Shown: positions 7,270 through 44,488 of the stretch, piece by piece | Position numbering within the stretch: the first letter of the stretch is position 1 | Layout: the number at the start of each line of letters is the position of its first letter | Translations under genes and position numbers: made by a program | Notes under the pieces: model-generated | What the model saw: only the letters and a program-made list of their open reading frames with translations | What the model was told of the DNA's origin: nothing | Database searches by the model: none | Source: a virus | Reading direction: 5' to 3' (one strand) | DNA: 64,000 bases | IMG/VR virus record: IMGVR_UViG_3300045988_171958 | Span: 160,001-224,000 of that record

Positions 7270-7510
7270 CAGAATTAAGAAAATTGACAGATGGTTATCA
7301 AATATTTTTGTATGGGTTCTCGCAATGACTGTCTTGTTTATATGGGCAACAAAAGTATTTATTGAATTCTTTCCATTCATTTTGATAATATCATTGCCAT
7401 TCTTGATTTTGTTTGATATTTGGATTGGATTCTTCTATATCTATTATATAGGAATATTCTTGTTATGTGGATATCGAGCATACTATGAATTGGATAATCA
7501 TCAAATTTGA
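7244..7510 (+). CDS. small membrane protein (88 aa)
   Basis: Hydrophobic helices; the stop codon lies inside a 38-bp perfect palindrome. Confidence 0.45.
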   Translation: MSWKALINNRIKKIDRWLSNIFVWVLAMTVLFIWATKVFIEFFPFILIISLPFLILFDIWIGFFYIYYIGIFLLCGYRAYYELDNHQI

Positions 7511-7524
7511 TGATTATCCAATTC
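7487..7524. terminator. 38-bp perfect palindrome (19-bp arms, no loop)
   Basis: GAATTGGATAATCATCAAA|TTTGATGATTATCCAATTC, encloses stop 7508-7510. Confidence 0.6.
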
Positions 7525-7564
7525 TTATAAATCTATTTTTACTTAAATCGATTTAAATAAAGGA

Positions 7565-10129: not shown

Positions 10130-11350
10130 ATGTTAAATTTAACACAATATGTACAAATCTTTGAAGGAGGAATGAGTAATCACATGTCAAGACCTTATGA
10201 TTTCCCTGAACTTACCTTAAAAGATTTAAGAGAAATAGTATTGTCAGTATTTGGCTATTCTGATCCAGTCGAATTTACAGAGAAGTTAGATGGTACTAAT
10301 ATTCAGGCATCTATGAATAATCAGAATGAAGTGATATTCATAAGAAATAAAGGTGACTTGAATTCTGAACGCGGTGGCATGTCAGTAGAAGATATGGCTG
10401 AAAAATGGAAAGATAAACCAGGTGTACAAAAAACATTTGTTTCTGCTGGTAAGATATTAGAAAGAATATTCAAAAGAATAGGTAGTAATTTCTTCAATCC
10501 AGATCCTAATACTAGATTATTTGCAAATTGTGAATGTATTGTTGCTGGTAAAACAAATATCATGCCATATATTGATGATAGTGTTGATTTTCATAATATC
10601 TGGGTATACAAAAAAGAAGGTGATGAATGGAAAAAGGATAAAGTTACTAGAGATGGATTAGATACTATAGAAAAAGCTATAGATAAAGATGATAAGGCTC
10701 AGCTTACTCCTAAATTGATAATGAAGGTAAATGACCAATCAAGAAAAATAGCTACTAAATGGTGTGATGAACTAAACAAACTTTGGAAACAAGAAGGATT
10801 AGGTGAAGATGATACATTACAAACTTGGGAACAATCTAGATTTAAGAAGATTGCACCAGAATGGATGACTGATGAAGATGGAGCAATATTCAGAAGATGG
10901 TTCCTTATGGATAAGTCAGTAAATATGAGAATATTGAAAAAGACTTATAAAGATCATGTTGATGAATTAGCAGAACTTGATAAAAAAGGTTATAAGAAAT
11001 ATGTAAGTGATGTAATGGGACCTATTGATAAGATGTTCATCAATCTAGGTACTGATGCAATAAATATGATACAAGGACTTACTAATTCTATAACTGATGA
11101 GCAAGCAAAGAAAGTAAAGAATGAACTTATATCAGATTTGAATACAGTAATAGATAAAGTAAACAAATCTGATGATATGGAATTAAAAGCAAAGCTTGCA
11201 TTAGAATTGTCAAGATTAGGAGATATGAATACAAATATTCATGATACTGAAGGTATTGTGTTTACTTGGAAAGGTAGAATGATGAAACTTACATCAGGAT
11301 TTGGTCCTGCAAATCAAATAATTAATTTACAATATAAATTAAATAAATAA
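10130..11350 (+). CDS. ligase-superfamily nucleotidyltransferase (RNA-ligase-like) with CTS-like N-terminus (406 aa)
   Basis: N-terminus MLNLTQYVQIFE|G; FTEKLDGTNI (KxDG motif I); LFANCECIV (motif III-like); TEGIVFTWKGRMMKLT (EGxV / KxK-like). Motif spacing is atypical. Confidence 0.5.
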   Translation: MLNLTQYVQIFEGGMSNHMSRPYDFPELTLKDLREIVLSVFGYSDPVEFTEKLDGTNIQASMNNQNEVIFIRNKGDLNSERGGMSVEDMAEKWKDKPGVQKTFVSAGKILERIFKRIGSNFFNPDPNTRLFANCECIVAGKTNIMPYIDDSVDFHNIWVYKKEGDEWKKDKVTRDGLDTIEKAIDKDDKAQLTPKLIMKVNDQSRKIATKWCDELNKLWKQEGLGEDDTLQTWEQSRFKKIAPEWMTDEDGAIFRRWFLMDKSVNMRILKKTYKDHVDELAELDKKGYKKYVSDVMGPIDKMFINLGTDAINMIQGLTNSITDEQAKKVKNELISDLNTVIDKVNKSDDMELKAKLALELSRLGDMNTNIHDTEGIVFTWKGRMMKLTSGFGPANQIINLQYKLNK

Positions 11351-11358
11351 CTATTATA

Positions 11359-11390
11359 ATTGAAATTCTTTTTATCAATTATCTATTTTT
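11359..11390 (+). promoter_or_regulatory. weak promoter-like match (ATTGAAATTC ... ATCTATTTTT)
   Basis: Degenerate copy of the cassette, spacing 24, pointing into the inverted-repeat region. Confidence 0.3.
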
Positions 11391-11437
11391 ATATAAGATA
11401 TTAGATATGAACATCATGTTTCTTCAAAATTAGTTCA

Positions 11438-11684
11438 CCAATATCACTCTCATTTGAGATGATTTGATAGTAAATATTATAGTAAAGAATTAAATAATAT
11501 TCAGTAAGAAATTAATGGTGTTTACAAAATATATCACAGCGGTGACTTAAAAGCGTCAGAGTACACGATAATTGATTTGTAGCTATTTCATTATATCACT
11601 CTGACGCTTTTTTTAAAAGAAATAATGAATTAGTCATGAACAACTTAGCACTTATCAAATCATCTCAAATGAGAGTGATATTGG
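11438..11684. repeat. 32-bp perfect inverted repeat flanking a 183-bp segment
   Basis: Left arm 11438-11469 CCAATATCACTCTCATTTGAGATGATTTGATA; right arm 11653-11684 is its exact reverse complement. Confidence 0.9.
11548..11617 (+). terminator. 14-bp stem / 35-nt loop hairpin followed by a T7 run
   Basis: AAAAGCGTCAGAGT (11549-11562) pairs with ACTCTGACGCTTTT (11598-11611), then TTTTTTT. Confidence 0.6.
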
Positions 11685-11757
11685 GTGTTAGTTTTTGATA
11701 TATTCATGATTTCTCTTGGTCACTTATATTCTATAAAATATATTTGAAAGAGAATTT

Positions 11758-13251
11758 ATGGCTACAGGATTATGCTACACTCAGAGTGGTAATGTTAAGA
11801 GATATGAAACGGATCAATGGCATGGATTTGCAACTACAGGTAAACCAGTATTAAGTGCATATGGGTTACCTGTAAATAATTTCAATATGGTCACCTGGAT
11901 ATTTAATTCAAATTACCATAAAAATGATCCTGTTGTTTTAAATGATACTTATTTTAATTATAGTATGAATAAAACATTATTTACAATTACTAAAGAACCA
12001 TCATCTACAAGTTATAAATATGAAGTAAGTTATACTAATTTTATTGATGATAATTATATTAATGATCTTAAACAACATATTATTGATAATTTTAATATCC
12101 AAACAAAACAAAATATAGATGATTATAATTTGACATATTATAATCCAAATATACTTAGTACTTATGAAACGAGTTATTCAATAATTCAATCCACATATAT
12201 ATTTAATTCTATAAAAGTATATTATCATAATATAGGTAATTATATTAATGTTAATAAATCTTCCTTATTCAGTGATAATTTTAATGGGTTTATAATTTAC
12301 AAACCAAAGCCTTTAAAATTATTTAATATATCTAGTGTATTATTTTCACCAGTGGTTTATATTAATGATGATACAAATGAAAAAATTTTTAACAAGGAGA
12401 TACAAATACAAAGTTTATGGACATTACCAATTCCTAAATTTGATGTGATTTTTACTACTGAATATAATAATGAAACTTATAAATACACACATAAAGATTA
12501 TAAATTTTCAAATAATCCTCCATTCCAAGATTTAAATATAAAAGTTAGTGATAATAAGAAATTAGGAAACAGTTTTATGGTAACATTACCTCCAATAGTC
12601 ATAAATGAAGATAATGGCAAAACAATAGAATATAATGGAACTAATCTACCAAATTTGAAAAATTTTACTTCTAATTTGGATTCAATAACACTATCAAATG
12701 GTAAAATTCTTTGGGCTCAAACTAATTATATGTATGAGTTAGTAGTAAAAGGATCTTTCCAAAAATCATACGAAATAATTAAATATGATACAAATTATGT
12801 TTTACATCAAATAAACCCAATAAGTTATGTTCAATTATTTATTAAAGATTTACCTGATTATTATTTAATAAATGTTAACTATGAAAGAAATATTAATGAC
12901 CCAATAAATGCTAGTAATGTAAGTATAATTTGGAATGTTAAATCTTATAAAAATGGTAAAATTTTACAATCATATATACCAGGAGGAATAATAGATGATT
13001 TAAATTTTTCAATTGAATTTGATTTCTCTGTGATTAATTATTCATATAGAGAAAATGAGATAATTAATGAATCTTCAACTGAAGAAGGTAAATTTTCAGC
13101 AGATATAAATGTATCATATCCTTTAAATAATTTATATGATTTTACAAGTGATTTAGATTATGAAGGTAATGGATATGATTATGTAGCAAGTATTGAACAA
13201 TTTACATACCCAAACAAGAGTCATTCTGGTATAGAAATTAAATGGAAATAA
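11758..13251 (+). CDS. Asn/Tyr/Ile-rich protein (497 aa), function unknown
   Basis: Long uninterrupted ORF in the most AT-rich part of the window; followed by a bidirectional palindrome. Confidence 0.6.
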   Translation: MATGLCYTQSGNVKRYETDQWHGFATTGKPVLSAYGLPVNNFNMVTWIFNSNYHKNDPVVLNDTYFNYSMNKTLFTITKEPSSTSYKYEVSYTNFIDDNYINDLKQHIIDNFNIQTKQNIDDYNLTYYNPNILSTYETSYSIIQSTYIFNSIKVYYHNIGNYINVNKSSLFSDNFNGFIIYKPKPLKLFNISSVLFSPVVYINDDTNEKIFNKEIQIQSLWTLPIPKFDVIFTTEYNNETYKYTHKDYKFSNNPPFQDLNIKVSDNKKLGNSFMVTLPPIVINEDNGKTIEYNGTNLPNLKNFTSNLDSITLSNGKILWAQTNYMYELVVKGSFQKSYEIIKYDTNYVLHQINPISYVQLFIKDLPDYYLINVNYERNINDPINASNVSIIWNVKSYKNGKILQSYIPGGIIDDLNFSIEFDFSVINYSYRENEIINESSTEEGKFSADINVSYPLNNLYDFTSDLDYEGNGYDYVASIEQFTYPNKSHSGIEIKWK

Positions 13252-13266
13252 GATATTATAAATAAA

Positions 13267-13304
13267 ATAATGAAATTATGGGTCTAGACCCATAATTTCA
13301 TTAT
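13267..13304. terminator. 38-bp palindrome between convergent genes (bidirectional terminator candidate)
   Basis: AATGAAATTATGGGTCT|AGACCCATAATTTCATT, plus two flanking complementary bases on each side. Confidence 0.65.
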
Positions 13305-13370
13305 AATAATTCTAATATAAAATTAGATAAATTCTTCATTTAAATATTCAATTTATTTTATTTAAAAATA

Positions 13371-13919
13371 TTAATTAAAAGTCCATTGTAATTTTCCGTA
13401 CCTAATATAATTGCAAAGCACTTCTTGCAAATCATATTTTCTTTCTACACCTATCATGCAATATCTGTCATGGTCCATCAAGTCTTTAATATCCTTATCA
13501 TAATGTTCCATAGCTCTCTCATAAGCAAGACTGTCCTTCTCTAATCCACCATCCTTCCATCTTTGACGTAACTTACATAACCAATATTCTTTGATGTTCA
13601 GATTAGGCATCACATTTGTATAAATCAGATTTCTCTTTTCTAGTTCATCTCTAACTAATTGATGAGTACTGCACATTACATTGATACCTTGCATTACTAA
13701 ATCTTGTACATAATTTACATAGATTTCTACCCAATTGCTTGGTCTTCCATCATTTCCTTTCATCAAGCTAGTTTCCAAATCTATTATAGAAACCCATCGA
13801 CCATCTTCCATTTGAATGCTGTTACCTCCTATGCTTGTCTTTCCTATGGCAGGATATCCACAAAATATGTGACCTATAGGTTTATGTTCCATAATTTTAT
13901 TGTCTTTATTATCTTTCAT
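13371..13919 (-). CDS. P-loop NTPase / nucleotide-kinase-like protein (182 aa)
   Basis: Walker A-like GYPAIGKTS near the N-terminus. Confidence 0.55.
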   Translation of the reverse strand: MKDNKDNKIMEHKPIGHIFCGYPAIGKTSIGGNSIQMEDGRWVSIIDLETSLMKGNDGRPSNWVEIYVNYVQDLVMQGINVMCSTHQLVRDELEKRNLIYTNVMPNLNIKEYWLCKLRQRWKDGGLEKDSLAYERAMEHYDKDIKDLMDHDRYCMIGVERKYDLQEVLCNYIRYGKLQWTFN

Positions 13920-13922
13920 TTT

Positions 13923-14732
13923 TTAAACTTCATATAATTTCTTTATATATTTAGCAGGTATGTTATTCTTTACAAAATAACAATGATCTTCTTTATCATA
14001 CATGTGATCTCTCCAGATATCAAAGTTCACTGTATACAAGTCTACTAACAACACTACTGTATTTTCCCAATCTAAATGATTCTCATCATCTGATCCTTTT
14101 CTTGCTTGCTTAAACTCTCTTGCAAATTTCAATATACTTTCTTTACTTTCTTTTCCTTTTAATTGTATTCTAGAACTATATTTTCTATATCCATCCTTTC
14201 CATCATGACCTCTCATTCTGAGTCCAGTCTCCTTTATTTTTTCATAATTTTTCTTAGTAGTAACATGTATGAATTTGTTATTAAACAATTTCATTGTTTC
14301 ATTATTACATTTGTCAGGATATTCAGGTTCTAAAATAGTATATCCATTCCACATATCAGTCTTCACATAATTGAAGAATGTACATATATCTAAGAACTTA
14401 CTTGAATTAACATAATATAATTGTTTGTTGTTAAACTTTACACCTACCAATCCATGCTTGTTAGATCTATTGATAGTGCAAATCTCATATATATTGTCTT
14501 TATATTCTTTTTCTATATGATTCACCAAACTATCTACATCATGAGATTTTAATGTCTCATATAGATAAGAATTAAGTTCAAATGTATGATTAATGTATGA
14601 TTCTTGTATATCTTTTGGTATGTCTTCTATAGATTCACCAAAATAAGTAGCTAACTCATTCAATCTATTTTGGCAGAACAACTTATCGTGTAAGTTGTTC
14701 TGACTTTCTATATATTCTTTTAAACTTATCAT
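13923..14732 (-). CDS. hypothetical protein with CTS-like N-terminus (269 aa)
   Basis: N-terminus MISLKEYIE|S. Confidence 0.6.
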   Translation of the reverse strand: MISLKEYIESQNNLHDKLFCQNRLNELATYFGESIEDIPKDIQESYINHTFELNSYLYETLKSHDVDSLVNHIEKEYKDNIYEICTINRSNKHGLVGVKFNNKQLYYVNSSKFLDICTFFNYVKTDMWNGYTILEPEYPDKCNNETMKLFNNKFIHVTTKKNYEKIKETGLRMRGHDGKDGYRKYSSRIQLKGKESKESILKFAREFKQARKGSDDENHLDWENTVVLLVDLYTVNFDIWRDHMYDKEDHCYFVKNNIPAKYIKKLYEV

Positions 14733-14741
14733 TTATTATAT

Positions 14742-14781
14742 ATAAATTTTAATCTTCCGGTATAAATTTTAATCTTCCGGA
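14742..14781. repeat. about 20-bp tandem duplication (TATAAATTTTAATCTTCCGG x2) spanning the thyX stop
   Basis: Read directly: ...ATATAAATTTTAATCTTCCGG TATAAATTTTAATCTTCCGG ATAG... Confidence 0.85.
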
Positions 14782-15599
14782 TAGATCTTGACACCTTGCT
14801 CTTTGAACAACAAATATATCTTATTTGCTAAATCGTAAGCTAATGGGTGAGGTTTACCAGTAAGACCTTTCATGCGTAGATCAAAAAAATGTTCCCAATC
14901 TTTTGTAGTACCACTCATCACCAATTCCGTAGCTGTTGAATTAGGAAGTACAGTAGCTGCTTCTTGTGCATTGCAACCCATCTTACATAACTTAAGATAT
15001 GAATATTCTGCACGTTCCATCTGCTTTACCCATTCATCATATACCTCATTTGAAATCAAGAACTTTCCAAATGCTGGTTTCAAGAACTTAAGCTCATTAT
15101 CAAACTTATCTTTACCATAATTACAATAGCGAGATGACTCTTGGTTGAAACTGAATACACGATGGCGTTCAAACTCATTTGCAATCTGACGATTAGTTAT
15201 CATTCGTACAGTAATTCGTCTGATATGGTTTATTGGTTCATAAGCACACTGATACTTAAGTACATCTTCCATTTCGTTTTCAACAATTACTCTATAGTTA
15301 GTAGTAACATAACAATAATTGCCATCACTATTTGTTTCACTATATTTGTTGAATGAAAAGAACAATGCATCATCTCTCTTACTTCTTGGCAGCTTAAGAT
15401 AGATAGTACAATGTTCCAATGTTGACAAATGTTCTGAATCAATCATTCTAGACACGAACTTTTCTGCGCTACCTTCTGTTATGAGATTCAATGACTTATA
15501 GCAAGTTCTGCCTGCAATTTCTACAATCTTCTTACCTTCTTCAAGTGTTGCTTCACCTAAACTTAAAATCTCTGCCGTTTGGTTATCAATTACCTTCAT
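14769..15599 (-). CDS. thyX: flavin-dependent thymidylate synthase ThyX (276 aa)
   Basis: ThyX signature FERHRVFSFNQESSRY (RHRxxSxxxxSxR). Confidence 0.85.
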   Translation of the reverse strand: MKVIDNQTAEILSLGEATLEEGKKIVEIAGRTCYKSLNLITEGSAEKFVSRMIDSEHLSTLEHCTIYLKLPRSKRDDALFFSFNKYSETNSDGNYCYVTTNYRVIVENEMEDVLKYQCAYEPINHIRRITVRMITNRQIANEFERHRVFSFNQESSRYCNYGKDKFDNELKFLKPAFGKFLISNEVYDEWVKQMERAEYSYLKLCKMGCNAQEAATVLPNSTATELVMSGTTKDWEHFFDLRMKGLTGKPHPLAYDLANKIYLLFKEQGVKIYPED

Positions 15600-15621
15600 A
15601 TTGTTATTTTATTAATATTGT

Positions 15622-16557
15622 TTAAAACAAATCAAATTCCTCTTGTTTCTCTACTTTGGTTTCTGATTCTTCTTTCTCTTTCAATTTTCTCATGCTTCTT
15701 TCTAGCTTATCTTTCTTATAAGCAAACTCAAATACTCTGTTTAAGAAATTCTCATCATATTTGAATGCTGGCATATATGCTTTATAGATTTCACCTTTGT
15801 TCTTACCAAGAACTGCATCTGTATTCTCATATTCTGCTTTAGGTAAATTCACTATCATACATTGAACATGACTAGCTTCTGTACCTTCTGGTAAGTAATT
15901 CTGCAACAATGCTTCTTTATAGTTGAATACTTGCATAGTATAAGTATACCAATCAAGATTAGGGAGTGTTTGAGCAGGTCCAAGCAATGTTGGTGTCCAT
16001 TTGTTCCCTTTAGTTGATATGCATTCATTTGACTTCCAATCTATAATGATCCAAGTATCGGTACGTTTGTTATAGAATAATGCATCCAATCTACCTCTCA
16101 CATAGAAATCATTATCATTGATAGTAATTCTATTCCAAACTTCTATTTCTCTACCAACAAATTCAACATCGCCAGACTTCATGATTCTTTCATAGAACTG
16201 GTCAAATGCCTTGATATGTGCCTTCATTCTTTCATCAGCATCAACATCATTATCAAGCATGAATTCTTCTATAATGTTTTCATCTCCTTCTAGCTTGCAT
16301 TCAGTATAAGCATCTAATTTCTTTCCATAAGTTCTAGAAACATTAGCTTTCTGTTCCCACAAGTCTAATATCTCTTTATATGACAATCCAGTCCATTTGC
16401 AGTTTATAGATTTACCTTTTTCTTCACATTTCTTCACTATACCTTCTTGGTCAAACTTAGGACTGATATACCCATTTACTGCACTAATTGTAACATACGG
16501 AATATTCTTATCTACAAACTTATTATCTAGATTTCTTAACTTTTCTATCATGTTCAT
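15622..16557 (-). CDS. PD-(D/E)XK family nuclease (RecB/Cas4-like exonuclease fold, 311 aa)
   Basis: RGRLDALFY...WIIIDWKSNE (D ... D/ExK arrangement). Confidence 0.6.
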   Translation of the reverse strand: MNMIEKLRNLDNKFVDKNIPYVTISAVNGYISPKFDQEGIVKKCEEKGKSINCKWTGLSYKEILDLWEQKANVSRTYGKKLDAYTECKLEGDENIIEEFMLDNDVDADERMKAHIKAFDQFYERIMKSGDVEFVGREIEVWNRITINDNDFYVRGRLDALFYNKRTDTWIIIDWKSNECISTKGNKWTPTLLGPAQTLPNLDWYTYTMQVFNYKEALLQNYLPEGTEASHVQCMIVNLPKAEYENTDAVLGKNKGEIYKAYMPAFKYDENFLNRVFEFAYKKDKLERSMRKLKEKEESETKVEKQEEFDLF

Positions 16558-16637
16558 TTATACTTTAAGGATTAAATATTATCTATAAAATAGAATATAA
16601 ATAGTATTGATTTCAACAAAAATATAGATGAAAATAT

Positions 16638-16670
16638 TTTGAAATTTCAGAATATTGTTCTATATTTTAA
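16638..16670 (+). promoter_or_regulatory. repeated promoter cassette TTTGAAATTT-N12-TTCTATATTT
   Basis: TTTG at 16638, CTAT at 16660 (offset 22). Confidence 0.65.
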
Positions 16671-16684
16671 ATGTTAAAATTATA

Positions 16685-16864
16685 ATGAATATGAAAGAAA
16701 TAATAGTTTACATATTAGTTTTCCTGATATTCAACTCTGTGGTTTATTCCACTAAGGTGATATTCAATTATGGAACTGATAAAGGTGCTGAACCTATGGG
16801 TAATATACTTAGTATTATCTACTTGATGGTAGTTATTGTTATTTTCTTGATTTGGATTCTTTAA
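16685..16864 (+). CDS. small membrane protein (59 aa from ATG 16685)
   Basis: MNMKEIIVYILVFLIFNSVV... has two hydrophobic helices. The track start 16655 is a non-ATG codon inside the promoter. Confidence 0.45.
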   Translation: MNMKEIIVYILVFLIFNSVVYSTKVIFNYGTDKGAEPMGNILSIIYLMVVIVIFLIWIL

Positions 16865-16876
16865 ATTATATAAAAT

Positions 16877-17299
16877 ATGTATTACGATAAACTTTGGAAC
16901 ATTACTCCTGAAGAGAATACTCTTCCATCAAAACTAGATATCAACTGTTTGTGTGGTTTTGAACCTAAGATGGATATAGTCAATATCACTCAGTTGTATT
17001 TCTTCAGAGAATATCATAATGAAGTAAGATGGACTTGCAAGTCTATAAGAATCATTAAGATGGTAGGTCAAACATTTAAGATTACACTTAATTCTTATGG
17101 AAGTGTATATAAAGTAGAAGTATTCAATAGAGCAACTGGATGGGTAGAAATACTTAGCAAATATGATTTACCGGAAGATGTTGATACAGAACCAGACCCA
17201 ACAAGATATGATGGCGATAGTATCAAGTCTAAGTTTGCTGTTATCTTTGATGATATTGAGAAGATGTTCATTAGAATGATTGTTAATTTGTATAATTAA
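16877..17299 (+). CDS. hypothetical protein (140 aa)
   Basis: ORF in the + strand array. Confidence 0.55.
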   Translation: MYYDKLWNITPEENTLPSKLDINCLCGFEPKMDIVNITQLYFFREYHNEVRWTCKSIRIIKMVGQTFKITLNSYGSVYKVEVFNRATGWVEILSKYDLPEDVDTEPDPTRYDGDSIKSKFAVIFDDIEKMFIRMIVNLYN

Positions 17300-17308
17300 A
17301 ATATTTTT

Positions 17309-17824
17309 ATGCTTATGTTGAGAAAGACAAAACCTAGTTTGCTGTACAGATTGTTATCTGGTAAAGAATCTTATGATACAGAATGCTATTATAAGAAGAT
17401 GAATGACTTGATAGAACATGACTTAGACCAGTTTGAGTTCTATGATGAGCTTGCAGAAAAAGAAAATGAGTATACTGATGCTCCATTACTATACAAAGTA
17501 GTAGTCAAAGGCAAGCATACTTCTACTTGGAGAGTTTATTTCTTAGGTGAAGATTATCCAGTTGTAGTTTATCCACTCAATGAAGGCGGAATTATCATGA
17601 TTAATCAATTGTATGGTGGATGTTGCCTTCATAAGAATGGAATGGAACCATCAGAACGTAGCAGATTCTATATCAAATATGATAGCATGCCATTCATTAG
17701 CTACCATTCTTCTAAATGGAAACAGAAATACGATAAGTATATTACAGATTGGCTTACTGAACATCTTGAAGATGGATATTCTGATAGTAACTGTTCAAAA
17801 GAATATATTGCTAAACTTAAATAG
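17309..17824 (+). CDS. hypothetical protein (171 aa)
   Basis: ORF in the + strand array. Confidence 0.55.
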   Translation: MLMLRKTKPSLLYRLLSGKESYDTECYYKKMNDLIEHDLDQFEFYDELAEKENEYTDAPLLYKVVVKGKHTSTWRVYFLGEDYPVVVYPLNEGGIIMINQLYGGCCLHKNGMEPSERSRFYIKYDSMPFISYHSSKWKQKYDKYITDWLTEHLEDGYSDSNCSKEYIAKLK

Positions 17825-17839
17825 AAATTGAATTAATTT

Positions 17840-19885
17840 ATGAATACAGAAATATTCCCAAATATTAATCGTGAACCTGATCCATCTTATGATATGTCAA
17901 AAGATGTTGATATTCTCGTAATGAAATATAGAGATTATCACAATTTGACAGATGATGAAGCTAAGTTTCTTCTTGATAAAGCAAAAGATGCTTATTACAA
18001 TACTGGCAAGGAAATCCTTAATGATAACGAATACGATAATCTTGAGAAGTCATTAGGTCAGGAAAACAAGACTTATGTTGGTTCAAAACATTCTGACAAC
18101 TATACCGTAAAGCACCCATTTATGATGGGTAGCTTATCTAAAGTACAGATTCATGAGAAGGCCGATGGCAGTATTGATTGGACTACTTACTTGAATTCTA
18201 TCTTCAGTTATATATACAATGGTAAAGAGAAAGTATGTAAGGTAATTGTTACACCAAAGTATGATGGTTGTTCATTTGAAATTCATATTACAAAGAAGTC
18301 AGATGGTACTTTAGATATAACATATTCCGGTCGTGGTGATGGTGAATATGGTAAAGATATTTCTAATCAGATTAAGCCTATCTTTGATTGCAAAGGTGGT
18401 TTCTTTAATTTTGTAATGGAAAAATCTGGTAATGCTTCTGAGGTAACATTACGAGGTGAAGTACTTATAGACAAATCAACATTCAAGCAGAGATTTGCAG
18501 ATAAGTTTGCAAATACTAGAGCTTTTGTTGCTGGTATGCTCAATAGAATTGATAAGGATGTTCATGAATATGTATATCTGTTCCCTATTATCTATGATTA
18601 CAGAATAAAAGAGAATGGTGAATGGAAAGATCTTGATTGGACTCGCCTCCTTACTGATAACCCATTTGAATACAATACATTCTTCCCAAGCTTCTATGAT
18701 GAAGGTATTGAACTGAATACTGTAGATGACTTGATTCGTATATATAAGAAGTATGAAGAGTACAGAAACATGTCAGAATATTCTCAGGATGGTATTGTCA
18801 TCAAACCAGTAGAATCAGAAAGACAGAACAATTTGACTGAACGTCGACCTGCAGATTGTGTTGCCATCAAGTACATTCCTATGACTGAACCAACAACAGT
18901 AATTGATATCGAATGGAATCTTGGTAAGTCAGGTGAATATATTCCTACTATTGTTACTAACCCTGTATATATGGATGGTAAGAAAATTACAAGAGCATCA
19001 GCATTCAATGCAGGTTATCTAATGGATAGAAAAATCAGTGTTGGTACTAAGGTTGTTCTTTCATTAGCTGGTGATATTATTCCTTACATATACAAAGTTT
19101 ATGATTACACAAACTTTGATCCTGCTAAATTAGGAAAAAGCTTCCCATCATCAGATAGTTATATAGATGGAATTCATGTAATGGCTTCTAAGATTGATAA
19201 TGAATTTGAATTGTTGAATTCTGCATTGAGTTTCAAGATTCCTGGATTTGGAACATCAACAGTACAAGATTTCATCAAATGGAAGAAGAAGGATTGTGAA
19301 CCAGATGAATTCTTTGGTATTGAAGCAAAAGAAATGCCATGGAATATTCTTCTATGTACACCAACAGAAATTGAGAATGCTATAGGTGGCAAGACAGGTT
19401 CTAATGTAAATAAAGCATATACCAAGTTGCTTAAGAACATTAAATTAAAAGATATCATACTATCTTGCAATTTCAGATTATGTGGTGATAAAGTTGCTCA
19501 GCAAATAGAGAATAAGTTGATTGGATTGCCTTATGACTTTACAAGTATGTCACATATTGCTTATGATTGGGCTGATGATAAGGAATCATCAAACTGGAAG
19601 AGATTCAAAGAGATTCTTGATTTCAATGGATGGTCATTAGATTCTTTCAAGTTATCTGGGAAAGAGTTAGCAGACACTAAGAAAGAAAATGACAAGATTC
19701 CTGTAATACTTACTGGTGAACCAAATAATTATTCTAGCAAAGCAGAATTCTTGAAGTGCCATCCAGAATATCGAATGACTGGTTCTTGGAAAGAGGTAAA
19801 GATTGTATTCACTAATTCATTGGAATCAAATACTGGTAAGATGAAGCGCGCCAGAGAGAAAGGAGTAGAAATACGACTTTATTAG
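17840..19885 (+). CDS. ligA: NAD+-dependent DNA ligase (LigA family, 681 aa)
   Basis: N-terminal Ia-like AKDAYYNTGKEILNDNEYDNLEKSL; adenylation motif VTPKYDGCSFEI (KxDG); length and C-terminal BRCT-like tail. Confidence 0.85.
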   Translation: MNTEIFPNINREPDPSYDMSKDVDILVMKYRDYHNLTDDEAKFLLDKAKDAYYNTGKEILNDNEYDNLEKSLGQENKTYVGSKHSDNYTVKHPFMMGSLSKVQIHEKADGSIDWTTYLNSIFSYIYNGKEKVCKVIVTPKYDGCSFEIHITKKSDGTLDITYSGRGDGEYGKDISNQIKPIFDCKGGFFNFVMEKSGNASEVTLRGEVLIDKSTFKQRFADKFANTRAFVAGMLNRIDKDVHEYVYLFPIIYDYRIKENGEWKDLDWTRLLTDNPFEYNTFFPSFYDEGIELNTVDDLIRIYKKYEEYRNMSEYSQDGIVIKPVESERQNNLTERRPADCVAIKYIPMTEPTTVIDIEWNLGKSGEYIPTIVTNPVYMDGKKITRASAFNAGYLMDRKISVGTKVVLSLAGDIIPYIYKVYDYTNFDPAKLGKSFPSSDSYIDGIHVMASKIDNEFELLNSALSFKIPGFGTSTVQDFIKWKKKDCEPDEFFGIEAKEMPWNILLCTPTEIENAIGGKTGSNVNKAYTKLLKNIKLKDIILSCNFRLCGDKVAQQIENKLIGLPYDFTSMSHIAYDWADDKESSNWKRFKEILDFNGWSLDSFKLSGKELADTKKENDKIPVILTGEPNNYSSKAEFLKCHPEYRMTGSWKEVKIVFTNSLESNTGKMKRAREKGVEIRLY

Positions 19886-24879: not shown

Positions 24880-26439
24880 ATGATAATTGACAGATTTTGG
24901 TTAAGAAAGAATCAGACGTATTATATTTTCTATTTGGATGAAAATGGTAACAGAAAATGCTATTCAAAACAAATGCATCATTGGAAAACTTATGAGTACA
25001 ATCCAAATGGAAAGAAGTATACATGGGATGGTAAGAAATGTGATGTGGTATTCAAAGATGCATCTAAGTATCAACCGAATGAATTTGATCAGCTGGAATT
25101 CTTGTATAATTTGCCAGAAGATATCTATAAGGAAGTAATGGCAATGAGATTTCCACGAATCTACTTTTCTGATATAGAGACTGAAATTTCGGATGAATTT
25201 CCAGAACCAGAAAAGGCGGAACAAAGAATTCAGTTGATAAGTCTTGTTGGTCCAGATTTGTCAGTAATGGTATTAGGTATCAAACCATTGAATTCTGATG
25301 AACAAGAAGAATTGAAGGAAAGATACCTTAAATATATAGAAGATAATGATTTTGCAAAAAACCTAATAAAGAAAAAAGGTTTTACACCAAAAGTATATTA
25401 TCAATATTTTGAAACTGAGGAATCAATGATTGAACATTGGTTCACTAGAATAATGCCAAAGATTGGTTGTTTAGCTGGATGGAACTATTATAGATTTGAC
25501 TGGAATTATATTTGGAATAGAACAGTAAAGTTGTTTGGAAAGTTCAAAGCAATGCAATTGATGAGATCTGCCAGTGTTGTTGGAGAAATCAATAAGATTT
25601 CTTGGTCAGAGATGGATGGTACAAAATATAGTATTCCAGCACCACAAGGTTGCATGATATGGGATTATATGGAGCTCATCAAATCTTATGAATATTCAAT
25701 GAGACCTTATGAGTCATATTCATTGGATTGGGTTGGTAGTCATGGTGTTAATGCTCATAAAGTAAAATATGAAGGAACAATGAAGGAATGTTATGAAAAT
25801 GATTTCCCATTGTTTGTTTACTATAATGCTATCGACTCTTGTTTGAATGCTTTGATTCATTATCGTTTCAAATGTATTGAAAGTCCATGTTCTATGGCAA
25901 CAGTAACAGGAATTCCAGCTCAGAAAGCATTAGGTCAGGTGGCTTTGACCACAGCAAATCTGTTCAGATGTTTTTATGATGAAGATCGACATGTTGTATG
26001 GGATTATGATGCTGTTGAAAGAACAAAAGTAAATTATGAAGGTGCTTTTTGTGGATGTGTTCCTGGTCGTTGGGAATATAGTGTATGTGATGACTTTGCT
26101 TCACTTTATCCATCAGTGGTTCGAACTTGCAACATATCAATGGAATCCATTATTACAAATAAAGTAGGTCCAGATAGTCTTGGAAGATATACAGAAATTC
26201 CATGGACAGAAGAAGAGCTTGATAAATTCAGAAAAGACCCTAATTATTTCGTGTCATTGCAAGGAACTGTATACAGAAATGACAAAGAATTCATGTTCGC
26301 TAAAATGCAAAGAATTCAAAAGGAGCGTCGAGATCACTTCAAATATCTCAATTGGTCATTACAAGGCCCAGTAATGATGGAAGTTGATCGACTTATAAAG
26401 ATAAGAGAAAAGGAAAGTAAATGTCAAAAGAATGGATAG
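24880..26439 (+). CDS. family B DNA polymerase, N-terminal part only (exonuclease domain through motif A; 519 aa)
   Basis: Exo I FSDIETE, Exo II GWNYYRFDWNY, Exo III YYNAIDSCL, Pol motif A DDFASLYPS. No KxxxNSxYG or YGDTDS motif before the stop. Confidence 0.85.
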   Translation: MIIDRFWLRKNQTYYIFYLDENGNRKCYSKQMHHWKTYEYNPNGKKYTWDGKKCDVVFKDASKYQPNEFDQLEFLYNLPEDIYKEVMAMRFPRIYFSDIETEISDEFPEPEKAEQRIQLISLVGPDLSVMVLGIKPLNSDEQEELKERYLKYIEDNDFAKNLIKKKGFTPKVYYQYFETEESMIEHWFTRIMPKIGCLAGWNYYRFDWNYIWNRTVKLFGKFKAMQLMRSASVVGEINKISWSEMDGTKYSIPAPQGCMIWDYMELIKSYEYSMRPYESYSLDWVGSHGVNAHKVKYEGTMKECYENDFPLFVYYNAIDSCLNALIHYRFKCIESPCSMATVTGIPAQKALGQVALTTANLFRCFYDEDRHVVWDYDAVERTKVNYEGAFCGCVPGRWEYSVCDDFASLYPSVVRTCNISMESIITNKVGPDSLGRYTEIPWTEEELDKFRKDPNYFVSLQGTVYRNDKEFMFAKMQRIQKERRDHFKYLNWSLQGPVMMEVDRLIKIREKESKCQKNG

Positions 26440-27458
26440 ATAATATATTGCTAAAGTTATTAGGTGATCACAATGGCCATCTAATAACTTCTTATTCTCA
26501 TAAATTTAAAATTGGAAAATATCCTAGGATATCTGAATATTTAAAAAATAGATTTGAAGAATTCATAACATATAGTGAAACTTATGCAAGAATTAAATTA
26601 AAAGTAGAAACTCACCCAGTATGCAAATATTGTGGAAAACCAACAAAATATGGTGGGTGGAAGCTTTTAAAGAAAACTGGTTTATTATATGGGAAATTTT
26701 GCTCTGCAAAATGTGCAAACATATATAATATTGATAAAGTAAAAGAAACGTGTAAGAAAAAATATGGAACCATTTCTGTTTCTCAAACCAAATGGTTTAG
26801 AAAACAAGTTGAGGAAACATCTTTAAAGAAATACGGTGCTAAATGTATTTTATCAAATACAGAAATAAGAGAAAAAATAAAAAATACTTGTAAAAGAAAA
26901 TATGGTGTTGAATATATTTCTCAATCTAAAATTATAATAGATAAAGTTAAAAATTCTTTACTATCTAAATATGGGGTTAAATGTGGTTATAATAAACCAG
27001 ATGTGATGGAAAGAATGAAATCTAAAGAATCACAATTAAAAAGAACTGAAGCTTTAAAAAGAAATAAAAGTTATGTAAAGTCGATTCCAGAAGAAAAATT
27101 AAATGATTTATTAGTAGAAAAATATGGTAAAGATGACATTGAAAGACAATTCATATCTAAAGAATATCCTTGGCATTGTGACTTCTACATTAAATCTTTA
27201 GATACATTTATAGAATTGCAAGGTATGTGGACACATGGTGGACATCCATACAACTTAAATTCAATAAAGGATCAAGTAAAATTACAACGGTGGCAATCAA
27301 AAGCCGACAATGGTTCAAGATTTTACAAGGGTGCAATAAAAGTTTGGACACAATTTGATGTGAATAAAAGAGAAACCGCTATCAAAAACAATTTGAAGTA
27401 TATAGAAGTGTTCGATAGTAGGAATTTTGAAATTCTTTACAATTTGTCTATATTATAG
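26421..27458 (+). mobile_element. free-standing homing-endonuclease-like gene, family copy 1 (345 aa)
   Basis: Zn ribbon CKYCGK..CSAKC; four tandem ~23-aa xxKKYGxxxxSQ repeats; C-terminal YPWHCDFYI...FIELQGMWTHGGH (Vsr/EDxHD-like core). Overlaps the polB fragment by 19 nt. Confidence 0.7.
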
Positions 27459-28120: not shown

Positions 28121-30004
28121 ATGGCAAAGACAATAGAACAAAAATATAAAGAATTATCAGAACAACAGCATGTGATCCTTCGCCCAAATATGTATGTAGG
28201 GTCTATTAAACCAGAACTTTCTACTCAGTTTGTTTTTGATTATAAAGAACAGATGATGGTACAGAAAGAAGTAGAATATGTTCCGGGTATTTTAAAGCTT
28301 ATTGATGAGGTTATATCAAATTCATGTGATGAATATCGTAGACCTGATAATCTTGGCCTTACTAATGTTTCTGTTACTGTAATGAAAGATAATACTATAG
28401 TAATAGAAGATAATGGTGGAATTCCTGTTGTTAAGCATAAAGATGCTGGCGTGATGCTTCCAAGATTTATTTTTGGTAGACTTCGTACTTCTTCTAATTA
28501 TAATGATGATGAAGATAGAGCAGGCCTTGGACAAAATGGAATTGGAGCTAGTTTGACAGCTATTTTTTCATCATATTTTGGTGTAATGACTGATGATGGA
28601 AAGAAGCGATGGCTCGGTAACTGGAAAAACAATATGTCTGAATTCTACGATGAGGAAATAGAAAAATCTTCTAAGAAGAATCATGGAACTAGGATTACAT
28701 TTCATCTTGACTTTTCTAGATTTGAAGGTATAGATAAGTTTGACAGAACATTCAAGGATATCATATTGACACGTTGTATCAATGCTGCAGCTGCTAATCC
28801 TGGATTGAAGGTAACATATAAAGATGTTGATGTATGTGGTGAATATAAGTTTGACAATTTCAAAGACTATATTGACTTATATAGAAACTATGTTACTTTG
28901 AAGGATTGTATAGAGATGAAAGATGAACATAAGCATGTCTATGTATATCCTGATGGAGCTATCAATATTGGATTTGTCAATGGAGGTATTTGCAATAAAG
29001 GTACTCATGTTAAAGCATTGCACCAAATCATCAATACTACTGTATGTGATTTTCTTAAGAAGAAAGATAAGATTGATTTGCTTCCACGACAAGTTGATGG
29101 CAACTATAGTATGTTTTGCGACTTGACTATTTCTAATCCATCTTATGATTCTCAGACTAAGGAATGCTTGACCACCCCTGTAGAGAAATTCTATAAAGAT
29201 GAAAATGTTAAGTTTGAGCTTCCAAACAAATTTCTTGATTCTGTTGTAAAGTCTGAAATCATAGATAATGTAAGAGATTGGTATAAGAAGAAATGTGAAG
29301 CAGAAGACCAACGTACTCTTCGTAAACTCAATAAAGAAGCAAGCAAAGGTCTTCGTCGTTCTGATAAGTATGTGACTTGTTCATCAAAAAAGAAACAAGG
29401 TAAGCAGCTTTGGATTTATGAAGGTGATTCTGCCGCAAGAGGTCTTCGTATTGGTAGAGATCCAGAAACCCAAGCTGGTTATGTAATGAGAGGTGTACCA
29501 CCTAACTCATTGGATATGTCGCCATTGCAGATTATGAAGAATGATGTGTTCAATGATATCATTACTATTTTAGGTCTTAAGTTTGGTGATGACTTCAATA
29601 TCAATGATTTGAAATTCGATAAGATTGTAATATCTACTGATGCAGATATTGATGGAGATAAGATTGCAGCATTGTTGCTTCTCCTTTTTTCTAGATGGCC
29701 AATTCTTTTTGAGAAGGGTATAGTATGCAGAAGCATTACTCCTATCATTATTGCAAAGAAAGGTAAAGAAGTAAAGAAGTATTATAGTCAAGAAGAATTT
29801 GATAAAGATGCAAGAAAGCTTAAAGGATATATGATTAAATACGTCAAAGGTCTTTCCGGTCTTGATGCATCTGAAACAAAGGAATCAATGAGAAACCCTA
29901 TCTTCATGCATTTCAAGATTGATGATTTGACAAAGTCAATGTTCAAGAAATGGTTTGGTAAGAATAGTAATGATCGAAAAGAAATGATGGGAGATTTAGT
30001 ATGA
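28121..30004 (+). CDS. type II DNA topoisomerase large subunit (GyrB/ParE-like; T4 gp39(+gp60)-like, 627 aa)
   Basis: GHKL motifs EVISNSCDE, EDNGGIP, GQNGIGAS; Toprim EGDSAA and STDADIDGDKI. Confidence 0.9.
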   Translation: MAKTIEQKYKELSEQQHVILRPNMYVGSIKPELSTQFVFDYKEQMMVQKEVEYVPGILKLIDEVISNSCDEYRRPDNLGLTNVSVTVMKDNTIVIEDNGGIPVVKHKDAGVMLPRFIFGRLRTSSNYNDDEDRAGLGQNGIGASLTAIFSSYFGVMTDDGKKRWLGNWKNNMSEFYDEEIEKSSKKNHGTRITFHLDFSRFEGIDKFDRTFKDIILTRCINAAAANPGLKVTYKDVDVCGEYKFDNFKDYIDLYRNYVTLKDCIEMKDEHKHVYVYPDGAINIGFVNGGICNKGTHVKALHQIINTTVCDFLKKKDKIDLLPRQVDGNYSMFCDLTISNPSYDSQTKECLTTPVEKFYKDENVKFELPNKFLDSVVKSEIIDNVRDWYKKKCEAEDQRTLRKLNKEASKGLRRSDKYVTCSSKKKQGKQLWIYEGDSAARGLRIGRDPETQAGYVMRGVPPNSLDMSPLQIMKNDVFNDIITILGLKFGDDFNINDLKFDKIVISTDADIDGDKIAALLLLLFSRWPILFEKGIVCRSITPIIIAKKGKEVKKYYSQEEFDKDARKLKGYMIKYVKGLSGLDASETKESMRNPIFMHFKIDDLTKSMFKKWFGKNSNDRKEMMGDLV

Positions 30005-31038
30005 CAGATATTGAAATAATAAATGCATATAAAGATAAAACTAAAATTTATTTTGTAGGTATGAAAGAAGAAATTAAATCATATCTACAAAATAGATTTA
30101 ATGATAGTGATTCTATAAAAGAAAGTTTTTATAGAGTTATGAATAAAATATATGATAGACCAACATGTAAATATTGTAATGGACATGTTAAATTTGTTTG
30201 GAAAGAAAAAAGATTTTTAAAATATTGTTGTTTATCATGTAAAATGAAAGTTGAATCTCCATTTAAAAGAAAAGAAATACAAAATAAAATAAAAGAAAGA
30301 AATATTGAAAAATATGGAGTAGACAATGTTTTCAAATTAAAAGAATTCCATGATAAATCTAAACAAACAAAATTAGATAGATATGGGGATGAAAATTATA
30401 ATAATAAGGAAAAATTTAAAGAAACATGTTTAAAGAAATATGGTGTAAATGCTCCATCACAAAATAAAGAAATAAGAAGAAAACAAATTGAAACTTCAAT
30501 AAAAAGATATGGGGGTGTATTCCATAAAGAAGAAGTTTCTAAAACAATTAAAAGAAAATACGGGGTTGATTGGTTTGTATATTCAGATAAATTAAAAGAA
30601 AAGGCAAATAGTGATGAAGCCCATTATAAAGCATATATTACTAAGAAGAAAAATAAATCTTTTGGACCTCAATCAAAAATGGAAAATATTTGTTATTTAT
30701 ATCTTAGTTTATATTATCCAGATATAATAAGACAATATAGAGATAATAAAAGATATCCATATAATTGTGATTTTTATATACCATGTTTAGATATGTTTGT
30801 TGAATTTCAAGGATATTATACACATGGTACACATCCTTATAATAAAAATTCTATTAAAGATCAAGTAATATTAGAAAGATTTAAGTCAAAATATAAAGAT
30901 TGGAAGAAACTTCCACAAATTATATCAACATGGACAATTAAAGATGTAGAAAAAAGAAATTTTGCTAAACAAAATAATTTGAATTATAAGGAATTTTTTA
31001 CTATTGATGAATTAAAAGATTGGTTAGAAAATGGATAA
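30001..31038 (+). mobile_element. homing-endonuclease-like gene, family copy 2 (345 aa)
   Basis: Same architecture: CKYCNG..CLSC, about five (K/R)YG repeats, YPYNCDFYIP..FVEFQGYYTHGTH. Start overlaps the upstream stop (ATGA) and its stop overlaps the next start. Confidence 0.7.
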
Positions 31039-43330: not shown

Positions 43331-44488
43331 ATGAAAACAAATCATGATAAAATTATAGTAAAAATTATTTGTGGACAAAATAAAGGAAATATTTCAAGAT
43401 TTAAAATATCTAAAATAAAAGATAATTATCCAAATATATTAAATTATATAAAAACTAGATATAAAGATAGTAATTCAATAAATGAAACTATTAATAGAAT
43501 GAAATTTGGTGGTCCAGAAATAGTACCAAAATGTCCAGTTTGTGGAAAACCAACAATTTATAAATATAAAAATATATATACATTATATTGTTCTCATGAA
43601 TGTGCTTATAAATCTAAAGAAGTATATGAAAAGAAAAAACAAACTTCATTAAAACATTATGGAGTATCTCACCCAATGAGATCAAAAGAAATAAAAGAAA
43701 AAGTAAAAAATACTAATATTGAAATTTATGGTGCAAAAACATTTGCTGAATCAAAACTTGGTAAAAAATATTTTGAGGAAAATAAAGAATTATTAGTTAA
43801 AAAAACAGAAGAAGGTATATTTAAAAAATATGGTGTTAAAAGTTATCAACAATCAAAAGAATATCAAAATAAAAAAGATGAAATATTAAAAAAAAGAAAA
43901 GAAACAAATTTAAAAAGATTTGGAGAAACTTCTTATTCAAAAACCAATGAATGGAAACAATCTTTTCAAAATAAAAAGCAAGAGATGTTGGAAAAAATGA
44001 AAGAAACATGCCTTAAAAAATATGGAAGAGAATGGTATTTTCAAACAGAAGATTCTAAACAAAAAAATTATATTACACAAAAGAAAAATGGTACATTTGG
44101 AAAATCTAAACCTGAAGTTGAACTTAAAAATTTTCTATTAAATTATTTTCCTGATTTAATATATCAATATAAATCAAAAGAATATCCATGGAAATGTGAT
44201 TATTATATTCCTACATATAAACTTTTTATAGAATTACAAGGTTCTTGGTGTCATGGAAATAAACCTTATGATCCAAATGATGAAGAATGCATTGAATTAG
44301 TTAATTTATGGAAATCAAAGCCAAATGGATTTTATAAAAGAGCATTATATGGATATACAATAGCTGATGTTAAAAAACGTAATTGGGTAAAAACTCATAA
44401 ATTAAATTTTATTGAAATTTTTGATTATTCTGATTTTAATAAAATTCTTAATAATATTAATACATATATCAAAATGCATCAAATGTAA
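43331..44488 (+). mobile_element. homing-endonuclease-like gene, family copy 3 (385 aa), opposite strand to the structural genes
   Basis: CPVCGKP..CSHEC, multiple (K/H/I)YG repeats, YPWKCDYYIP..FIELQGSWCHGN. Confidence 0.7.

Follow-up and report, generated by a model that had tools for sequence, protein, structure and literature searches.

What does a perfect 32-bp inverted repeat do in the leader of a hypervariable phage gene? The question is raised by IMG/VR virus record IMGVR_UViG_3300045988_171958, of which we analyzed the 64,000 nucleotides from position 160,001 to 224,000 (here called the window; its coordinates count from its first letter). Two arms of 32 bp enclose a 183-bp segment there, shortly upstream of an Asn/Tyr-rich open reading frame (ORF), and an earlier note on the window had offered three readings: an invertible switch, a small RNA, and a replication origin or cruciform. 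We find that the feature is very probably a recombining, invertible element. Beyond this we favor, with moderate confidence, a regulatory leader switch in which inversion flips a terminator-like hairpin, in a layout like that of the cwpV locus of Clostridioides difficile; how exactly a flip is read out can be stated with low confidence only. At the level of sequence comparison, the anatomy of the unit, co-evolution of the arms, repeated inversion between genomes, placement of the promoter by its motif and conservation of the hairpin are established. The unit consists of the following parts.

11351..11437, no strand: flank A, the left spacer, with the promoter-like site P_A on its + strand; its - strand is a decayed copy of the flank B leader, without a usable start
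11357..11392, + strand: promoter-like site P_A (TAATTGAAATTC-N-TCTATTTTTAT), pointing into the left arm and on to the ATG at 11758
11438..11469, no strand: left arm IR-L, CCAATATCACTCTCATTTGAGATGATTTGATA, a proposed recombination arm, 32/32 complementary to the right arm
11470..11652, no strand: putative invertible inner segment of 183 bp, which has the majority ('standard') orientation in the window
11653..11684, no strand: right arm IR-R of the inner inverted repeat, pairing with IR-L across 183 nt
11685..11757, + strand: flank B leader, with the purine-rich, ribosome-site-like GAAAGAGA at 11746-11753 before the ATG; homologous to reverse-complemented flank A

The arm positions given in the earlier note (11438-11469 and 11653-11684, enclosing 183 bp) are correct, and all 32 of 32 positions proved complementary. 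No other spaced inverted repeat of 22 nt or more, with its arms within 1.5 kb, exists in the 64 kb, where three further matches are local palindromes. By a rough estimate, about 1e-9 perfect 32-mer pairs would be expected by chance. The note had also suggested a comparison with homologous loci in related phages. Using exact and degenerate pattern scans together with protein-anchored look-ups, we recovered the locus in 15 further assemblies from human gut, pig gut and other metagenomes (L001, L003/L020, L004, L005/L013, L008, L012, L014, L018, L023, L024, L027, L028, L039, L060 and L098); the repeat is present in these 15 relatives, and the orientation of the enclosed segment differs in three. 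A loose scan for loop plus stem of the hairpin led to 166 loci, of which only L060 and L098 were genuine, and L002, L006 and 11 metagenome loci with a single match were discarded as chance matches. The element is single-copy in the window and in each relative.

The arms of these relatives have changed together. Complete arm pairs fall into eight distinct sequences, some of which match the arms of the window at the last few bases only. In an alignment of seven arm variants, 224 of 224 cells pair, 222 of them as Watson-Crick pairs, and 15 of the 32 positions are altered on both arms jointly, transversions included (AU to UA, CG to AU); none of 500 shuffles and no shifted register comes near this covariation. 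The repeat is exactly 32 nt long in all but two of the 15 assemblies: complementarity ends both outward and inward in 11 of 12 measured loci and in L027, and the arms of L060 and L098 are likewise perfect over 32 nt. These boundaries hold across lineages whose flanking genes share 74-75% nucleotide identity, and the arm end beside the segment is conserved as TAYCnAWT. The fixed 32-bp extent and the conserved end suggest the footprint of a protein. L028 has degenerate arms, in which the match persists over the inner 23 nt only, and its locus looks decayed, with no called ORF in the left cassette and a gene of just 183 aa.

The 10-mer ATATCACTCT, which the earlier note had seen three times, does occur three times in the window (0.44 expected; one in 100 shuffles attains three). 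We regard this as coincidence, since two of the copies are the arms themselves and the sharing is gone in relatives with other arms. A shared 9-10-mer (AGAGTGATA / ATATCACTCT) was also considered as a common recombinase core and rejected, being neither enriched nor found in the other arm variants.

Covariation of this kind could also arise from RNA. The two arms might pair in the transcript from P_A as a 32-bp duplex, a site for RNase III processing or for stability, with the DNA inversions incidental. Both arms would be transcribed from P_A, the leader folds at -101.5 kcal/mol (z = -9.6), and the only two arm mismatches (one in L005/L013, one in L008) are each U-G on the + strand, the P_A sense. 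RNA stems, however, tolerate wobbles and bulges, yet 222 of 224 cells are Watson-Crick pairs, transversion pairs among them, and the boundaries are nucleotide-exact across very different sequences. Efficient termination at the inner hairpin would moreover leave the right arm rarely transcribed, three independent inversions speak against this reading, and an RNA duplex leaves unexplained the outer repeat and the startless cassettes described below. We therefore consider this explanation unlikely, if not negligible; it is the strongest rival, and it is compatible with a switch.

Direct indications of inversion come from the orientation of the segment. BLAST of the parts of the window showed the inner segment reversed between unchanged flanks (A plus, inner minus, B plus) in L012, L027 and L060. 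Alignment of L060 with L023, whose flanking genes are 82-86% identical, gives a plus/minus/plus pattern that overlaps at the arms, and L012 shares about 94% identity with the standard-orientation locus L004; both L012 and L060 have close relatives in the standard state. In total, twelve loci are standard, three inverted and one (L003) ambiguous. Each inverted locus represents a different arm lineage, so inversion occurred at least three times. In the ambiguous locus (L003 283-776, also L020 1-170), flank A lies on both sides of the inner segment, the repeat continues without a break from either arm across flank A and into the cassette start, and neither cassette has a start codon. Either the arms have undergone gene conversion, or the assembler has joined two inversion states of one sample into a chimera; the double flank A hints at mixed junctions.

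The whole A-to-B unit also varies in orientation relative to its neighbors. Flank A lies beside the ligase-like gene in the window, L001, L018 and L024, and comes after the stop codon of that gene in the window and L005/L013; flank B takes this place in L008, L023 and L028. Inner and outer states occur in all four possible pairings.

Which signal would the segment control? P_A fits a promoter motif, TTTGAAATTT-N11-TCTATATTT, that recurs before about 13 genes of the window and that we take to be the -33/-7 layout of Bacteroidota promoters. With a weight matrix built from 12 window promoters, P_A scores 15.3 bits in the window, 19.0 in L023 and 17.0 in L027. It is the sole matrix match in the switch region in seven of seven relatives whose scanned region covered it, always directed from A to B, and nothing of at least 6 bits was found within the segment or flank B on either strand in any lineage scanned. 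The gene's transcript must therefore most likely cross the invertible segment, as judged from motif positions. The earlier note had described a weak promoter-like match at 11359-11390 pointing into the unit; site and direction are real, the match to the recurrent motif is stronger than the note supposed, and the site is the likely promoter of the gene.

Its proposal of an invertible switch gains from the flipped segment in three lineages and from arm co-evolution; a flipped terminator or leader element fits better than a flipped promoter, since the promoter, as placed by its motif, lies outside. One candidate inside the segment remains to be weighed. A sigma-70-like extended -10 site lies on the - strand (TTTAAA-16-TGaTATAAT, 11617..11590), and the segment could then carry its own promoter, as in fimS or Bacteroides switches, pointing left (OFF) in the window and turned ON by a flip. 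The site is a good one, and in L012 it faces the ATG. It was rejected as a promoter for want of conservation (part of the -10 is deleted in L023, where the spacer measures 14 nt, and the L027 spacer measures 13 nt), and the phage matrix finds nothing inside the segment, whereas P_A outside is conserved. An invertible promoter is thus distinctly unlikely. A flank B promoter (TTGGTC-17-TATATT, or cTTG-N20-TATATTTG) was likewise rejected, as it is absent in L023, L027 and L028 and has no matrix match.

In the window at large, a promoter-like motif written as ATTTTGAAATTT-N10-TTCTATATTTTA precedes about 13 non-structural genes (3955, 5969, 16636, 20818, 21228, 27424, 32659, 36501, 53543(-), 53559, 54637, 58236 and 59390), with weaker matches at 16653(-) and 7410. 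It is missing from the capsid, protease and large structural ORFs. A T4-style late promoter, TATAAATA, was tried and gave no pattern upstream of structural genes.

The segment itself measures 183-206 bp in relatives (227 bp in L028), contains no ORF of at least 20 aa, and is organized as follows.

11470..11490, no strand: AT-rich stretch, hypervariable and with indels, immediately inside the left arm (from the alignment)
11500..11535, + strand: conserved block 1, TTCAGTAAGAAATTAATGGTGTTTACAAAATATATC (from the alignment)
11515..11550, + strand: short upstream ORF, MVFTKYITAVT, with a stop codon that reaches into the beginning of the hairpin stem
11549..11614, + strand: conserved terminator-like hairpin with a 14-bp stem (11549-11562/11598-11611), a structured 35-nt loop and a T7 run (11608-11614)
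11577..11591, + strand: loop core TTGTAGCTATTTCAT, containing the 12-nt TAGCTATTTCAT
11619..11646, + strand: conserved block 2, GAAATAATGAATTAGTCATGAACAACTT (from the alignment)

The earlier note's hairpin, a 14-bp stem with a 35-nt loop and T7, stood up to this analysis, except that the unit ends at 11614 and not at 11617. Three of its base pairs show compensatory changes, and three G-U wobbles are all on the strand with the U tract, which folds 0.9-5.1 kcal/mol better than its opposite in L023, L027 and L028. In the loop, TAGCTATTTCAT is the most conserved sequence of the element, invariant in eight aligned sequences including the distant L027 and L028 and also found in L060 and L098; no second copy or complement of it occurs in the window. 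In the L023-lineage loci and their neighbors the inner segment is 91% conserved, compared with 82-86% in the flanking genes. By these comparative criteria, the hairpin is under selection. For the upstream ORF, the nucleotide block is conserved and its length and frame are not (6 codons in L023, 3 codons in L027 and L028); a ribosome terminating on it could mask the hairpin stem.

The tails after the stem bear on the direction in which the hairpin would terminate. In the window lineage, U7 or UUUCUUU follows the stem on the + strand as opposed to UUU(U)AAG on the other, and L027 has UCUUUC on one strand and no U tract on the other. Judged by these tails, terminator polarity is plausible in the window lineage, but no conserved rule emerges.

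A promoter followed by a terminator-like hairpin, in the correct order, could equally delimit a small RNA gene, in which P_A gives rise to an RNA of about 215 nt that ends at U7 and acts on a target through its loop or its left-arm segment, and the invariance of TAGCTATTTCAT would suit such a role. Against this, no complementary target is present in the window and no Rfam family matches; the element always travels with the cassette gene, both being absent in the close relative L032; and in three lineages an antisense version would be made from P_A. We judge a small RNA gene very improbable. The RNA of about 200 nt that the earlier note envisaged is compatible as a by-product, whereas its pairing with the right arm has no independent support.

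The gene that the leader precedes, and the region behind it, contain these features.

11758..13251, + strand: hypervariable cassette ORF of 497 aa, Asn/Tyr-rich, 21-24% GC, with its ATG 73 nt past the right arm
11758..11775, + strand: constant gene start, the ATG and five codons (MATGLC), which lies within the outer invertible unit in relatives
11776..11808, + strand: codons 7-17 (YTQSGNVKRYE), corresponding to the outer inverted-repeat arm of relatives
13253..13318, no strand: palindromic terminator between the cassette ORF and converging - strand genes, with T runs on both sides

ATG 11758, the 497-aa ORF and the distance of 73 nt agree with the earlier note. The palindrome at 13253-13318, probably a bidirectional terminator, is one of two perfect or near-perfect local palindromes seen at gene ends, the other lying at 7484-7527.

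No matches for eight or nine cassette types were found in Pfam, PHROG or PDB, and an AlphaFold model from a four-sequence cassette alignment was unusable (pLDDT 28); these analyses gave no support to the label 'surface-protein-like' of the earlier note. The low GC content of the ORF contrasts with 28-33% in its neighbors, and its GC skew is near zero compared with +0.27 in neighboring + strand genes. The cassettes are mosaic: the last 136 aa of the L024 cassette are 90% identical to window residues 362-497, and the N-terminal half is unrelated. Taken together, these comparisons describe a fast-evolving, mosaic family with no known relatives.

A second inverted repeat surrounds the switch in most relatives. 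Within the window lineage the gene start is constant (MA[T/S]G[L/I]C), and across loci it is followed by codons 7-17 with the consensus YTQSGxxK[R/K]YE and then by a highly variable ORF. Because flank A adjoins a second, diverging cassette that starts at the same YTQSG codons, these codons form an outer inverted repeat. The paired motif was found in L001, L008, L012, L014, L018, L023 and L027, and the repeats are perfect or near-perfect over 32-42 nt in L001, L012, L023 and L027. In most relatives the outer repeat thus brackets promoter, leader and start codon between two diverging cassettes without a usable start of their own. In L008, for example, reversed flank A reads ATG ACA GTC ATT ATT TAA directly before the TAC codon. 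One cassette that is silent in L018 is found joined to the ATG in L013 (93.6% amino acid identity over 544 aligned positions). The window and L005/L013 lack the second cassette, and since the outer-arm motif is single-copy in the window, outer inversion is impossible here.

Inner and outer repeats are both about 32 nt long, and their right-hand arms both start with TAY (TACAC... and TAYCnAWT). This common start may be a shared site requirement, or a coincidence forced by the Tyr-Thr codons.

Paired gene starts raise the possibility that the arms are a passive relic, the best-kept part of a longer ancestral repeat of two diverging paralogous gene starts, held by gene conversion and accompanied by neutral inversions. 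Reversed flank A is recognizably homologous to flank B, and in L003 the repeat extends unbroken from the arms through flank A into the cassette. Neutral conversion tracts should erode at their ends, though, and the 32-nt boundaries stay fixed at 74-75% flanking identity; the inner segment is also better conserved than the flanking genes, and decay is seen only in L028. A relic is, in our estimate, quite improbable.

The close relative L032, on a 284-kb contig, shows what is lost when the element is absent. Compared with window 11351-13370, L032 (5858-5891) has just 32 nt between a 108-aa gene and the ligase-like gene, so that the whole module of switch and cassette is missing and not merely 247 bp. 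The module is thus an accessory indel, and the element always accompanies the cassette gene. An inverted repeat this long and perfect, lying between genes in AT-rich DNA, might also be a replication origin or cruciform, or a miniature inverted-repeat transposable element (MITE) with 32-bp terminal repeats. GC skew, however, tracks the coding strand with no switch centered on the element, there are no iterons, and the element travels with the accessory module, so the origin or cruciform proposed in the earlier note finds no support; a MITE is contradicted by the single copy, the lack of a clean target-site duplication and the loss of the entire module in L032. Either is scarcely credible.

We therefore return to the leader switch as our working model. 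The arms would be recombination sites that bound an invertible segment of about 250 bp in the 5' leader of the hypervariable gene. Transcription would begin at P_A outside the segment and would have to pass through both arms and the 183 bp between them before it reaches the ATG at 11758. In the orientation of the window, the hairpin and U7 would stop or attenuate transcripts from P_A, giving an RNA of about 215 nt and low gene expression, and in the flipped orientation UUUUAAG would follow the stem and allow read-through into the gene. In most relatives this inner switch would be nested in an outer inversion with codons 7-17 as its arms, which would turn P_A, the leader, the ATG and five codons toward either of the diverging cassettes and thereby select the one expressed. 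The window has lost the second cassette or never had it, which would leave only the inner, on/off-type switch. Flipping would occur at high frequency within populations, with the arms recombined by a recombinase or by the phage's own recombination system acting on perfect repeats.

A bolder version of this model, which we consider possible but doubtful, holds that the nested inversions are a two-tier system native to huge phages with a T4-like core and probable hosts among gut Bacteroidota, in which the inner tier sets expression and the outer chooses the hypervariable cassette. This would amount to phase and antigenic variation of a host-interaction protein by a phage, a counterpart to the phase-variable surfaces of its hosts, with arms and loop recognized by a recombinase of a kind not known to act on such sites, from the phage or hijacked from the host, or with the phage's own homologous recombination machinery driving the system.

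Several observations weigh against a leader switch. Pfam found no serine or tyrosine recombinase domain in window ORFs of at least 70 aa, in agreement with the earlier note, and no recombinase appeared among precomputed Pfam matches for genes 3-10 kb around the switch in L023, L024, L027, L028, L029 and L039; nor is a Resolvase-domain protein present in the window or among the neighboring genes of relatives. The two orientations are documented by comparison of assemblies rather than within one sample, and fixed evolutionary inversions would look alike. A segment bounded by 32-bp repeats could also be mis-oriented by an assembler working at k<=32; L027 carries a SPAdes-style name, with no assembler given for L012 and L060. 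Logan contigs, which were built at k=31, end at the arms and are uninformative on orientation. Taking the standard orientation as OFF would put 12 of 15 assemblies in the OFF state. Finally, the hairpin has a loop longer than 8 nt and so goes uncalled in a consensus terminator scan, and in L023, L060 and L028 the U tract of the opposite strand is equal or better (UUUUGUUGU, UUUUAUAU).

The switch resides in a large phage. The window sequence is identical to NCBI assembly GCA_902729945.1 (contig CACVDK010000001.1, 293,853 bp), which has T4-like core genes. By Pfam, the window encodes a Gp23-type capsid protein, a prohead protease, topoisomerase II, a family B DNA polymerase, an NAD ligase, ThyX, a sigma-like factor and a Dam methylase. 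The closest relatives of the capsid protein, at 28-39% amino acid identity, are from uncultured huge phages, Sphingomonas phage PAU, Chryseobacterium and Tenacibaculum jumbo phages, and Prevotella phages. No nucleotide relatives were found among GenBank phages, the window contains no tRNA, and Rfam 15 gave zero matches at gathering thresholds (the best permissive match reaching 20.8 bits against a threshold of 47). The phage is large and gut-associated, and probably lytic. Its host probably belongs to the gut Bacteroidota, as indicated by the promoter layout (TTTG...TAnnTTT), the few window genes with a Shine-Dalgarno site and the capsid relatives that infect Bacteroidota.

Some further observations concern the genomes around the switch. 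L098 (CALFLM010000088.1) is a 99-kb contig with the same switch, binned in a metagenome-assembled genome labelled Romboutsia; given the Bacteroidota-like promoters and capsid relatives, it is probably a mis-binned low-GC phage contig. In L008 and in L018 the ligase-like side of the module directly adjoins a block matching window 16877-19885 (compare window 10130-16900). This implies a larger rearrangement, in which the ligase-like gene, the switch, the cassettes and, presumably, ThyX have been inverted as one block with respect to the NAD-ligase block. Four paralogous DUF7487 ORFs of 345-385 aa (window 26421-27458, 30001-31038, 43331-44488 and 51321-52427) adjoin or separate the polymerase, topoisomerase and Rad50-like genes. 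The polymerase-adjacent copy in L020 is only 37% identical and lies on the opposite side of the polymerase ORF, and this divergence and altered position suggest mobile, homing-type genes.

Among phages, textbook cases of programmed inversion are limited to the tail-fibre segments of Mu, P1 and p15B. Inversion switches in metagenomic viral genomes are still 'poorly understood' according to a 2026 survey (PMC13501310). Our literature search found no description of this locus and no mention of the assembly accession, and the layout is not known to have been described for phages. It stands apart in that a leader element without coding sequence is nested within an inversion that turns promoter and start codon between whole-gene cassettes, in that it is present in large, probably lytic gut phages from human and pig samples, and in that it would control a fast-evolving family. 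If high-frequency switching is true, phage populations would hedge a host-interaction function as gut hosts do with their capsules, which would bear on phage-host coexistence in the gut and on host-range prediction. The locus also offers a clean test case, because arms, flanks and both junction types are defined and read-level inversion calling should apply.

How, then, does the locus compare with known inversion systems? The phage tail-fibre inversions Mu G/Gin, P1 C/Cin and p15B Min, which are among the systems cited in the survey (PMC13501310), share with it a phage DNA inversion that chooses between versions of a variable protein. They flip 3' variable coding segments behind a fixed promoter and N-terminus, whereas the outer inversion here would turn promoter, start and five codons around between whole-gene cassettes that stay in place, and the inner inversion would leave all coding sequence untouched. 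They also carry an adjacent serine invertase and 26-bp dyad sites, neither of which was seen at this switch, and act on fibre genes, while the cassette proteins are not recognizable as fibres. As no coding 3' segments flip and no serine invertase is adjacent, the locus is not a member of this family.

The outer inversion has closer counterparts in bacteria. The vsa locus of Mycoplasma pulmonis uses 34-bp vrs sites in the 5' coding region, and the sap locus of Campylobacter fetus inverts a promoter. The seven relatives with the paired motif follow the same plan, with an outer repeat in a conserved 5' coding region and one promoter and start turned toward one of two opposed genes, the partner lacking both. 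They differ in having only two cassettes (one in the window), in the phage setting and in the additional nested leader inversion.

The Bacteroidales invertible promoters and gene shufflons (Mpi/Tsr) comprise regions of about 200 bp, bounded by repeats of 20-30 bp, upstream of variable genes. Region size, bounding repeats and position upstream of a variable gene are alike here, and the host phylum is likely the same. The phage differs in its promoter, which lies outside the segment, in the lack of an adjacent invertase gene, and in its arms, which are unlike what we take to be the Mpi consensus, ARACGTWCGT.

In the cwpV switch of C. difficile, 21-bp repeats enclose 195 bp and the ATG lies 57 bp away; transcription is driven from upstream of the segment, which itself contains neither a promoter nor an ORF (Emerson et al. 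2009, PMC2784873). Like cwpV and the related flgB switch, the phage locus has a short repeat-bounded segment in a 5' leader (183-206 bp), and like cwpV it has a promoter upstream and outside, here placed by motif, a similar distance to the ATG (73 bp), no recombinase gene next to the switch, and a proposed read-out through an orientation-dependent hairpin and U tract. Inside its segment, the phage has no matrix promoter but an unconserved sigma-70-like site and a short upstream ORF. Further differences are that the cwpV repeats are imperfect 21-mers and those of the phage perfect 32-mers, that the cwpV terminator forms at the junction of arm and segment while the phage hairpin lies entirely inside the segment with ambiguous polarity in some lineages, and that cwpV is bacterial and RecV-dependent, as opposed to a switch in a probably lytic jumbo phage that is nested, in relatives, within a second inversion. 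By analogy of layout, cwpV would be the closest known system in its working, and the Bacteroidales invertible regions are also similar.

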